A DNA stretch of 64,000 bases from a virus (taxonomy: Duplodnaviria > Caudoviricetes). Positions within the stretch are counted from its first letter, which is position 1. Each line of letters begins with the position of its first letter. Of this stretch, positions 1,903 through 41,982 are shown piece by piece. Location of the stretch: positions 1 through 64,000 of the IMG/VR virus record IMGVR_UViG_3300037461_001438. One strand, given 5' to 3'. The notes beneath the pieces are model-generated. The model ran no database searches and had not been told where the DNA came from. It saw nothing but the letters and a program-made list of their open reading frames with translations. Made by a program: the position numbers and the translations under genes.

Positions 1903-2085
1903 TTATTTTTTCCTCTTCTTCGCCAACCTGCGAAGCGTCTTTCTTGCAGCTCACCGCTTGCGCGCAATCGACGAAAGCTTTGATTTCGGTTGAGAGCAGA
2001 ACTTGGCCACACTCATGCCGGAACGTTTGGCCTGAGAGGTCAAGGCGCCTTTTTTAAGTTTTCCGATCCATCCGTTTTTGGCCAT
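1903..2085 (-). CDS. Small basic protein with in-frame UGA (candidate selenoprotein)
   Basis: AAGGAG RBS, ATG 2085. MAKNGWIGKLKKGALTSQAKRSGMSVAKFCSQPKSKLSSIARKR(UGA 1951-1953)AARKTLRRLAKKRKK, then TAA 1 nt before the portal ATG. Confidence 0.65.
1918..1935 (-). promoter_or_regulatory. Bacterial SECIS-like hairpin
   Basis: CUUCGC-AGGUUG-GCGAAG; the stem starts 15 nt after the UGA. Confidence 0.55.
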
Positions 2086-14165: not shown

Positions 14166-14855
14166 ATGGGCCAATTTTCATCTGACTTTAGCTCTTCGGC
14201 GGGATGGACTTTAACCGGGTGCGAATTTACAGGTGGGGTATTTGTTTCCACCTCAAACTATTGTAGGGCCAGATACGACACCCCCTGCAACGGTTTAACT
14301 CAATATAGCAAAGCCAAATTTCCTTATACTGGAGGCAATGGCTCCGGGCCAGCCGTTAGGCTATCAAATGATGATCCACGCTATTATGCGCTCGAATCAG
14401 GGTGGGGTGGAATTTGGCTAACGCTTAACAGCGCCGTCGACGGATGGATAGCTGATATTGGGTTTGTAGATATAGACCTTACAAATGGCGATTCCGTTGC
14501 CATTACAATCGATGGAACCGGACAAAATTGCACCGTCAGAGTTTGGCATAATCCGACAAATGCTGTGCCACATGATGTTGCTAATTGGGATAGCGCGAAC
14601 GATCCTCCAGACGGAACGATAACCAATGTCGGCGCAACATGGGATTTGCAGGGTTATTACGTCGGCGTTGGAAGCCAACTATCCCAATCTAACACTTTGG
14701 ATGATTGGTCAGGCGGAGATGTTCCGACTGGTATCATCATGTCCTACCGCACCGGCGCCACGAAAGCCGCCTGCGAAGCGGCAAACTGGATCGAATACAC
14801 GGCGCCGTTTGAATCGTCAGGATTTGCCCAGGTGAAAGTGGAGGCACCCGAATAA
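14166..14855 (+). CDS. Beta-sandwich (lectin-like) putative virion protein
   Basis: AGGAGA RBS; G/S/T/N/W-rich; A+T-richer than the flanks except the last ~130 nt. Confidence 0.55.
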   Translation: MGQFSSDFSSSAGWTLTGCEFTGGVFVSTSNYCRARYDTPCNGLTQYSKAKFPYTGGNGSGPAVRLSNDDPRYYALESGWGGIWLTLNSAVDGWIADIGFVDIDLTNGDSVAITIDGTGQNCTVRVWHNPTNAVPHDVANWDSANDPPDGTITNVGATWDLQGYYVGVGSQLSQSNTLDDWSGGDVPTGIIMSYRTGATKAACEAANWIEYTAPFESSGFAQVKVEAPE

Positions 14856-41282: not shown

Positions 41283-41807
41283 ATGATCTACCTCGATATC
41301 AAAGACGTTGAATCGATCAAGGAAGAAGACCTGCCGCTGCTTGTTTTGAGTTCCGATGCCAAAAGCTTCCTCGCCTGGGCGATCAGGCGGCGCACCAACT
41401 CCCATTACAGCCACCTCATGTGGCTCCACAGGCCCGGCTATTTCGCCTCGCAGGATCTCTGGTATCGCGAAGTGCCGATCATGAAATATGACGGTGTCCG
41501 ACTGAAGCTGTGGCGCGGCAAGAACTGGACGGCAACCGACAAGCTGAACATCACCGCCCGCATCAACCAGGAACTCGCCAAACCGGCGCTCGACACCCGC
41601 TACGACATGCTGGCCATCGTCGGACAGCTCTTCGGCCTTGTCAGCATCCAGGTGCCCTGGACAAAAATCTGCTCCGACTGGGCCGAGCTGCTCAAGATCG
41701 CCGACCCGTTCTACAACCTCAAGTGCCCCGATCCCGGCGACGTCAACCAATGGCTGAATGAAAGACAGGATCAGTATGAATGTTTTGCGCGCTATATTCC
41801 TGATTAG
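41283..41807 (+). CDS. Permuted papain-like amidase (YiiX/YebB-like)
   Basis: SHYSHLMW (His), RYDMLAI, ICSDW (Cys), P.DV. Confidence 0.7.
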   Translation: MIYLDIKDVESIKEEDLPLLVLSSDAKSFLAWAIRRRTNSHYSHLMWLHRPGYFASQDLWYREVPIMKYDGVRLKLWRGKNWTATDKLNITARINQELAKPALDTRYDMLAIVGQLFGLVSIQVPWTKICSDWAELLKIADPFYNLKCPDPGDVNQWLNERQDQYECFARYIPD

Positions 41808-41982
41808 CCTTCTTTGCGGCTGCTCAGTCGTCCAGACACCGCGGGAATACAATCTCTATTTGCACAACTGACAAGACGTTACCGTGCGCTTGGAGGTCCA
41901 GGCGGAACACAAAGACCAGATAAAGCAAGATACGTCTCCGACAACCGATGCGAACATCCCGCTGTCGATCGTGCCAAAATAA
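41776..41982 (+). CDS. Lipoprotein with in-frame UGA (candidate selenoprotein)
   Basis: AGGA RBS; MNVLRAIFLISLLCGC lipobox-like; ...YNLYLHN(UGA 41869-71)QDVTVRLEVQAEHKDQIKQDTSPTTDANIPLSIVPK, then TAA 11 nt before the endolysin ATG. Confidence 0.65.
41887..41904 (+). promoter_or_regulatory. Bacterial SECIS-like hairpin
   Basis: CGCUUGG-AGGU-CCAGGCG; the stem starts 15 nt after the UGA. Confidence 0.55.

Follow-up and report, generated by a model that had tools for sequence, protein, structure and literature searches.

A candidate phage selenoprotein: comparative evidence for selenocysteine at an in-frame UGA beside a portal gene

Introduction

Cells, and a few poxviruses, are known to use selenocysteine decoding. 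Does a tailed phage also use it? The question is raised by a small reading frame that lies between the genes for the large terminase subunit (TerL) and the portal protein and is interrupted at codon 45 by an in-frame UGA, at a position where a cysteine would be expected. We analyzed this locus in a window of 64,000 nucleotides, positions 1 to 64,000 of an IMG/VR virus record that is 90,476 bp long and complete according to CheckV. Full-text literature searches returned no selenoprotein reported for any virus of bacteria. A 2026 review of prokaryotic selenoproteomes never mentions phages or viruses (PMC13188914), a review of viral recoding lists only the poxvirus selenoproteins, plus read-through in Q-beta (PMC8310308), and in a marine survey, selenoprotein families contained few viral sequences or none.

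Results

A 60-codon frame runs through the UGA and abuts the portal gene

The locus contains the following elements, all on the minus strand of the window.

2100–2095, minus strand: Shine-Dalgarno sequence AAGGAG, 9 nt before the ATG at 2085–2083 (direct reading)
2085–1954, minus strand: first 44 codons of the small basic ORF (translation, homologs and a 39-sequence alignment)
1998–1996, minus strand: TGC codon of Cys30 (translation)
1953–1951, minus strand: in-frame UGA, codon 45, the proposed selenocysteine codon (comparison of TGA and Cys at this column)
1950–1906, minus strand: 15-codon tail, AARKTLRRLAKKRKK, whose translation requires decoding of the UGA
1935–1918, minus strand: SECIS-like hairpin CUUCGC-AGGUUG-GCGAAG, 6-bp stem, minimum free energy (MFE) −8.5 kcal/mol
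1905–1903, minus strand: stop codon TAA of the small ORF, where the 60-codon reading ends
1901–396, minus strand: portal gene (phrog_145 portal protein, E 8.6e-48)

The first 44 codons translate as MAKNGWIGKLKKGALTSQAKRSGMSVAKFCSQPKSKLSSIARKR. The portal ATG (1901–1899) lies one base past the TAA of the small ORF, and the purine-rich portal ribosome-binding site (RBS), AGAGGA, is embedded in the final codons of the small ORF, as the original prediction had proposed. The remaining elements that it had listed (AAGGAG-N9-ATG, the K/R-rich ORF, UGA45 and the hairpin) are likewise present where it had placed them. On the upstream side, an alpha/beta-hydrolase-like gene (2780–2040) ends with an ordinary TGA stop inside the first codons of the small ORF, so that the two genes overlap by 46 nt. 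A 15-codon open tail is by itself unremarkable, since such tails are common after any stop. The case that ORF 2085–1903 is a single 60-codon gene of a phage selenoprotein with a Cys30–Sec45 pair, which we consider probable, is therefore a comparative one.

Many relatives carry UGA or cysteine at the same column

A search of 5.8 billion proteins with the 60-residue query returned three full-length homologs of 58–63 residues (P0002, P0003 and P0006), each with a cysteine exactly at the UGA column and a similar tail, and two homologs (P0004 and P0005) that end exactly before this column; E-values for P0002–P0006 range from 1e-18 to 6e-7. The small protein gave no match by tblastn against 50,697 GenBank phage records. 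P0004 and P0005, together with P0001, are gene-caller products of 40–44 residues. As such, they agree with an explanation in which the UGA is a true stop, the protein has 44 residues, and the 50 nt downstream are conserved as an RNA element (hairpin plus RBS) that controls portal translation. Yet the homologs that end at residue 44, which the original prediction had named as a finding that would count against it, all carry TGA followed by the conserved tail.

We read the DNA of 56 loci gathered from scans of IMG/VR, JGI metagenomes and GTDB genomes. TGA is kept at codon 45 in the window and in L001, L002, L003, L007, L030, L033 and L034, that is, in eight distinct sequences from at least eight samples (the L003 sequence recurs in L020, L035 and L036). 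In these eight forms the stop at this column is always TGA, never TAA or TAG, and the tail follows the pattern x-x-R/A-K-T-L/F-R-R-L-x-K-K. Another 17 distinct loci have TGT or TGC at the column, which together with P0002, P0003 and P0006 makes 20 distinct Cys relatives, and in 15 more distant relatives the column is Ile, Thr or Ala. An alignment check confirmed the expectation that residue 45 is Cys in sense-codon homologs for those of the Cys-type branch. The pattern as a whole, with TGA, tail and hairpin in eight distinct relatives and a Cys column in 20 others, exceeds chance.

In one Ile/Thr-type relative (L011:652–830) the tail contains an in-frame TAG (AKTL-stop-KLHK); this locus is either a truncated copy or another recoding event.

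Across the UGA clade, the gene order TerL, small gene, portal is conserved, with identities to the window of 47–68% for the portal and 55–73% for TerL. On sequence comparison, the clade is old. The UGA form of L007 belongs to an unrelated phage of 108 kb. A tree, although poorly resolved, places the Cys forms P0002 and P0003 within the UGA forms and L007 outside them, which indicates more than one event of switching between selenocysteine and cysteine. Such repeated switching is usual for selenoprotein families.

These comparisons also bear on the possibility that the UGA is a nonsense mutation in a Cys codon, the mark of a pseudogene, or an assembly error. A single transversion (TGT or TGC to TGA) would suffice, and the Cys forms P0002 and P0003 are close relatives. 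However, the same TGA recurs in eight distinct sequences from independent assemblies and samples at about 50% portal identity, and their tails are intact and under selection. We regard an accident of this kind as effectively refuted.

The gene adjoining the UGA gene of L007 (L007:2456–2812, minus strand) encodes an RF-1-domain, ArfB-like release-factor protein (phrog_3122, E 9e-29). That a phage has a ribosome-rescue or release-factor gene next to a recoded UGA gene could have a bearing on recoding, or it could be accidental.

The tail evolves as coding sequence

When 13 codons of the tail are compared across the eight UGA forms, pN/pS is about 0.2–0.3, with pairwise pS of 0.3–1.1 against pN of 0–0.5 (typically 0.5–1.0 against 0.1–0.3). 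Conserved arginines of the tail are written AGA, CGT or CGA, and threonine is written ACG, ACA or ACT. In the 39-sequence alignment, the tail matches up position by position with the helix that ends the Cys, Ile and Ala forms at the C-terminus. Taken together, the substitution pattern and this alignment exclude a pseudogene and strongly disfavor a true stop followed by a purely RNA-level element.

Termination at codon 45 does have points in its favor beyond the gene calls: in the window, L001, L002 and L034, about 15 nt separate the hairpin from the portal RBS downstream of it, and TGA is a normal stop elsewhere in the genome. It does not account for a tail whose substitutions are those of a translated frame, including multi-base synonymous Arg switches, nor for the homology of that tail to a helix that the Cys, Ile and Ala forms read straight through, and in a protein of 44 residues most of the predicted helix 39–59 would be missing. 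Moreover, no portal start follows directly after the tail in L007, and a gap of about 100 nt separates the two in L003. We therefore find a 44-residue protein with a downstream control element improbable.

A SECIS-like hairpin lies at a fixed distance from the UGA

In the window, the stem of the hairpin starts at nt 19 counted from the U of the UGA, and the loop lies 21 nt after the UGA. Taken alone, this hairpin is within chance: its MFE of −8.5 kcal/mol corresponds to z = −0.62, and 45 of 200 shuffled sequences fold as well. Its value as evidence comes from comparison with the other UGA forms, whose hairpins read as follows.

CUUCGC-AGGUUG-GCGAAG: window, L001
CUUCGU-CGGUUG-GCGAAG: L002
CUUCGCC-GGUU-GGCGAAG: L033, L034
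CUC-A-UGC-GGUUGG-GCA-A-GAG: L030
UUGCGC-AGUCU-GCGCAA: L003
UUCCGC-AGGAU-GCGGAA: L007

The L003 and L007 hairpins differ by a G-C to C-G swap. Over nt 13–42, mean MFE is −9.5 kcal/mol in UGA forms, −4.5 kcal/mol in Cys forms and −2.6 kcal/mol in the others (UGA against non-UGA forms, Mann-Whitney p = 1e-5).

Two related Cys lineages, L025/L044 and L022/L043, have a strong hairpin of their own (L025:3049–3090, and also in L044, L022 and L043; down to −16 kcal/mol), with its apex at the same distance and no loop G. It may be a fossil SECIS left behind after a change from selenocysteine to cysteine.

A second gene of the same phage has a UGA and hairpin of the same geometry

The same phage encodes a second candidate selenoprotein.

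41776–41982, plus strand: second candidate selenoprotein gene, a lipoprotein-like ORF of 68 codons directly upstream of the GH108 endolysin gene
41869–41871, plus strand: its UGA, codon 32
41887–41904, plus strand: hairpin CGCUUGG-AGGU-CCAGGCG, beginning, like that of the first gene, at nt 19 after the U

The product is a lipoprotein-like peptide, MNVLRAIFLISLLCG followed by C. Five relatives from other phages in IMG/VR (L057–L061) all keep the TGA and a hairpin whose loop starts with AGGU; their stems show compensatory changes, and the peptide encoded downstream (D/N-V/I-TVRLEVQAE...) is strongly conserved. A protein-database search gave no called homolog of 37–119 residues for this gene, and no Cys form was found. 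Its hairpin sits mid-gene, 36 codons before the stop, which further argues against a hairpin that serves only to control a portal gene downstream of a true stop.

Considering both gene families together, the apex lies 27–28.5 nt past the U of the UGA in 13 of 13 UGA forms. Their loops (AGGUUG, CGGUUG/GGUU, AGUCU, AGGAU, GGUUGG or AGGU(U)) can be described as G-G/U. Published criteria for a bacterial SECIS (bSECIS) call for a loop of 3–9 nt, a stem of at least 4 bp, a G in the first two loop positions, a spacing of 16–37 nt from the UGA, and an MFE of at most −7.5 kcal/mol (PMC13188914). We applied them, allowing perfect stems only, to the 13 UGA forms and to 31 non-UGA forms. Nine of the 13 UGA forms satisfy them strictly. 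The other four are borderline, namely the window and L001, whose isolated stem at −7.2 kcal/mol (−8.5 in context) falls just short of −7.5, L060 at −6.6, and L030, where a mismatch interrupts the stem. None of the 31 non-UGA forms passes, the best qualifying hairpin among them reaching −4.3 kcal/mol. In 12 of the 13 UGA forms, the observed codons fold better than 86–99.8% of synonymous recodings.

In a gap-free alignment of the 13 UGA-plus-45-nt segments of both families, one fixed 6-bp structure pairs in 80.8% of cells. Column shuffles give 58.5%, with none of 500 attaining the observed value, and sliding the register gives at most 49%. Five of the six stem pairs change on both sides among the 13 forms, much of this covariation lying between the two unrelated genes. 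Two unrelated genes thus appear to have converged on one geometry, as a trans-acting reader such as SelB would impose. In its fixed distance, its G-G/U loop, its compensatory changes and its specificity for UGA forms, the hairpin that the original prediction had pointed out behaves as a bacterial-type SECIS.

A covariance model built from the 13 hairpins matched only its training sequences in 250 kb of window and loci, with no match in the loci that carry Cys forms, and Rfam has no family in the hairpin region. A loose genome scan for TGA plus hairpin gave 23 matches where about 14 are expected, those other than the two genes lying out of frame or at normal gene ends. A strict scan (TGA, 17–19 nt, stem of at least 6 bp, AGGU loop) picked out exactly the two genes, against 0.27 expected; as the motif was defined after the fact, we take this as modest support.

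UGA is not reassigned in this genome, and its decoding would depend on the host

TGA terminates 85 of 164 long ORFs and is the commonest stop in this genome, and TerL, the portal and the other long genes contain no internal stops. We set aside a global reassignment of stop codons (codes 4, 25 or the recoded-phage type), given this usage of UGA and the lack of a suppressor tRNA. ARAGORN (with introns and relaxed settings) and Rfam found no tRNA-Sec or suppressor tRNA in the phage record, and neither SelB nor selA, selC or selD was found there; five related records likewise yielded no tRNA-Sec. Because the phage has neither tRNA-Sec nor SelB, decoding of the UGA would have to rely on the host. 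A 93-nt 'tRNA-Arg(gcg)' that ARAGORN reported at 14738–14830 (plus strand) of the window has a poor acceptor stem and T arm and is probably a false positive.

A few leads bear on the host. L020 (DATKVL010000263.1) is a 5.7-kb contig binned in a Dehalococcoidia metagenome-assembled genome (MAG); it is a phage fragment with TerS, TerL, the UGA gene and the portal, and is nearly identical to the IMG/VR locus L003. Among 401 Chloroflexota genomes, the portal occurs only on this MAG's own small contig and is missing from the 400 others, which makes the binning doubtful and probably wrong. The MAG itself has no SelB above the cut-off, and its best tRNA-Sec match is a tRNA-Ser. The closest isolate TerL is only 42% identical and gives no host, and TerL gave no host lead in the ESM Atlas. 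The endolysin does provide a weak lead there: its nearest mainly bacterial cluster is commonest in Thermodesulfobacteriota. This phylum is rich in selenoproteins. The combination of lipoprotein and GH108 lysis genes suggests a diderm host.

In one further explanation, the UGA is read through without selenocysteine. Trp, Cys or Arg would be inserted by a near-cognate tRNA or host suppressor, helped by the hairpin, to set a ratio of 44- to 60-residue products as in the Q-beta coat and A1 proteins. A conserved UGA with a coding tail fits any read-through mechanism, there is a phage precedent in the UGA read-through of Q-beta (PMC8310308), no selenocysteine machinery is demonstrable for the host, and with the tail stop abutting the portal ATG, a fixed ratio could tune portal translation. 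Left unexplained are why the stop coincides precisely with a column whose Cys covaries with another Cys, and why it is always TGA. Nor does read-through of this kind account for the hairpin that two unrelated genes have in common, always equally far from the UGA and with the G-G/U loop of the bSECIS model, and the phage encodes no suppressor tRNA. We know of no bacterial read-through that such a hairpin stimulates. Insertion of another amino acid is, in our judgment, unlikely, albeit less so than termination.

Selenocysteine, by comparison, would explain the UGA/Cys column, the coding tail, the hairpin and the covariation together, and this evidence supports the central idea of the original prediction, that a UGA at a Cys position is read as selenocysteine. 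On these comparative grounds, we consider selenocysteine at UGA45 likely.

Residues 30 and 45 covary as a pair

The original prediction had coupled residue 45 to Cys30, and the alignment backs this pairing with perfect covariation. Among 39 sequences, Cys in column 30 and Cys or UGA in column 45 always occur together and never singly (28 sequences); the remaining 11 have the hydrophobic pairs I-I, M-I or V-A. These counts include related sequences, and the pattern may reflect only two or three evolutionary events. It is the pattern expected of contacting residues, in which an S-S or Se-S covalent link would have taken the place of a hydrophobic contact.

The product is a 60-residue, extremely basic, helical protein. 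AlphaFold2, run on the family alignment, predicts with confidence a small helical fold (mean pLDDT 81) with helices 14–21, 26–30 and 39–59. In this model, Cys30 ends helix 2 and residue 45 lies within the long C-terminal helix. A selenocysteine at position 45 would thereby come to lie on the C-terminal helix against Cys30 at the end of helix 2, and the two could bond covalently as a selenylsulfide. The Cys-type relatives would form a disulfide at the same pair, and the more distant relatives would keep the hydrophobic contact. We infer that such an Se-S bond would stabilize or regulate the small protein. A selenylsulfide can form at a lower redox potential than a disulfide, which might be relevant in a reducing host cytoplasm. 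The pair might also act as a redox 'switch', as had been suggested for it.

The function of the protein is less clearly indicated. Pfam gave nothing significant; sub-threshold hints were to helix-turn-helix and ribbon-helix-helix (HTH/RHH) domains (NikA-like, E 0.005–0.15; LacI, E 0.003, in relatives). A Foldseek search of the PDB with the predicted fold found no match, and a wide VIA-align search gave Z of at most 4.0, a value that says nothing useful about a helical protein of this size. The HMM of phrog_20603, a phage protein family without an assigned function, matches the 44-residue part of the window's protein at E 0.058 and gives no match to the 60-residue form. Four Ala-type relatives (L010, L012, L009 and L018) do match this family, with E-values from 3e-21 to 3e-15, and over their whole length they can be aligned to the protein of the window. 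These phrog_20603-type members differ in having V...A where the branch of the window has C...C/U, and they have no UGA and no hairpin. Domains of this type also occur in fusions, N-terminally to a lipase-like (GHSLGG) domain (L056:45–1283) and with a peptidoglycan-binding, endolysin-like region (L018:2962–3726). The fusions, and the overlap with the hydrolase gene in the window, hint at an adaptor role of the small domain for enzymatic cargo. The protein may bind DNA or sit in the virion, in line with the original proposal. As a working model, we picture a small packaging- or virion-associated adaptor or nucleic-acid-binding protein that is stapled by a selenylsulfide.

Discussion

We propose that the SelB/tRNA-Sec machinery of the host reads the UGA of codon 45 as selenocysteine, the identity of the residue being what we infer from the comparisons above. 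The machinery would be recruited by the bacterial-type SECIS hairpin at 1935–1918, which is part of the coding sequence and lies 15 nt past the UGA. As the tail stop abuts the portal start, selenocysteine decoding may, speculatively, influence portal translation.

A wider model can be built on this proposal, which we offer as tentative and regard as more doubtful than the decoding itself. Phages of selenium-using hosts would encode their own late-module selenoproteins, and the phage described here would have two of them, a protein in the packaging module and a lipoprotein in the lysis module. Selenocysteine would replace a structural cysteine so that an Se-S cross-link forms where a disulfide cannot, for instance in the reducing or anaerobic cytoplasm of the host; slow, SelB-dependent decoding would meter portal synthesis; and selenium together with the host's selenocysteine machinery would determine phage production.

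If selenocysteine is indeed inserted, phages exploit the host machinery for the 21st amino acid in structural or late genes. Gene callers would then systematically truncate such genes, as in the 40–44-residue fragments seen here, and selenium status and selABCD would become candidate factors for host range or productivity. The use of selenocysteine for structural cross-linking in a tiny protein that is not an enzyme would moreover be unusual for selenoproteins.

How does the locus compare with known systems? The closest parallel is to bacterial genes decoded by SECIS and SelB, with E. coli fdhF as the prototype. Likewise, these have an in-frame UGA where homologs have Cys and, just downstream and inside the coding sequence, a stem-loop in which a G and then G/U open a small apical loop. 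The AGGU loop resembles that of fdhF, and the loop lies 4–5 nt further from the UGA here than it does in fdhF. Known selenoproteins are mostly redox enzymes, not tiny basic proteins. In the present case, the gene is instead a phage gene in a phage without its own selenocysteine machinery, it encodes not a redox enzyme but a basic, helical packaging-module protein of 60 residues, and the partner cysteine is 15 residues away, not in a CxxU or UxxC motif. The spacing from UGA to loop is 21–23 nt, inside the 16–37 nt of the bSECIS model, at an MFE of about −7 to −12 kcal/mol (PMC13188914).

Among viruses, the glutathione peroxidases of fowlpox and molluscum contagiosum are selenoproteins of eukaryotic viruses, and the fowlpox SECIS also lies inside the coding sequence (PMC8310308). 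The poxvirus genes share with our proposal a dependence of a virus gene on the selenocysteine machinery of its host. They differ in being captured host glutathione peroxidases with a eukaryotic-type SECIS, whereas the gene described here encodes a phage-specific small protein with a bacterial-type SECIS. The Q-beta coat/A1 system resembles the locus in that a leaky UGA in a phage gene yields a C-terminally extended product. In Q-beta, however, the identity of the inserted residue is unimportant, and there is neither a SECIS-like hairpin nor an alignment with Cys; here, by contrast, the UGA stands on a covarying Cys column and is accompanied by a SECIS-type hairpin.
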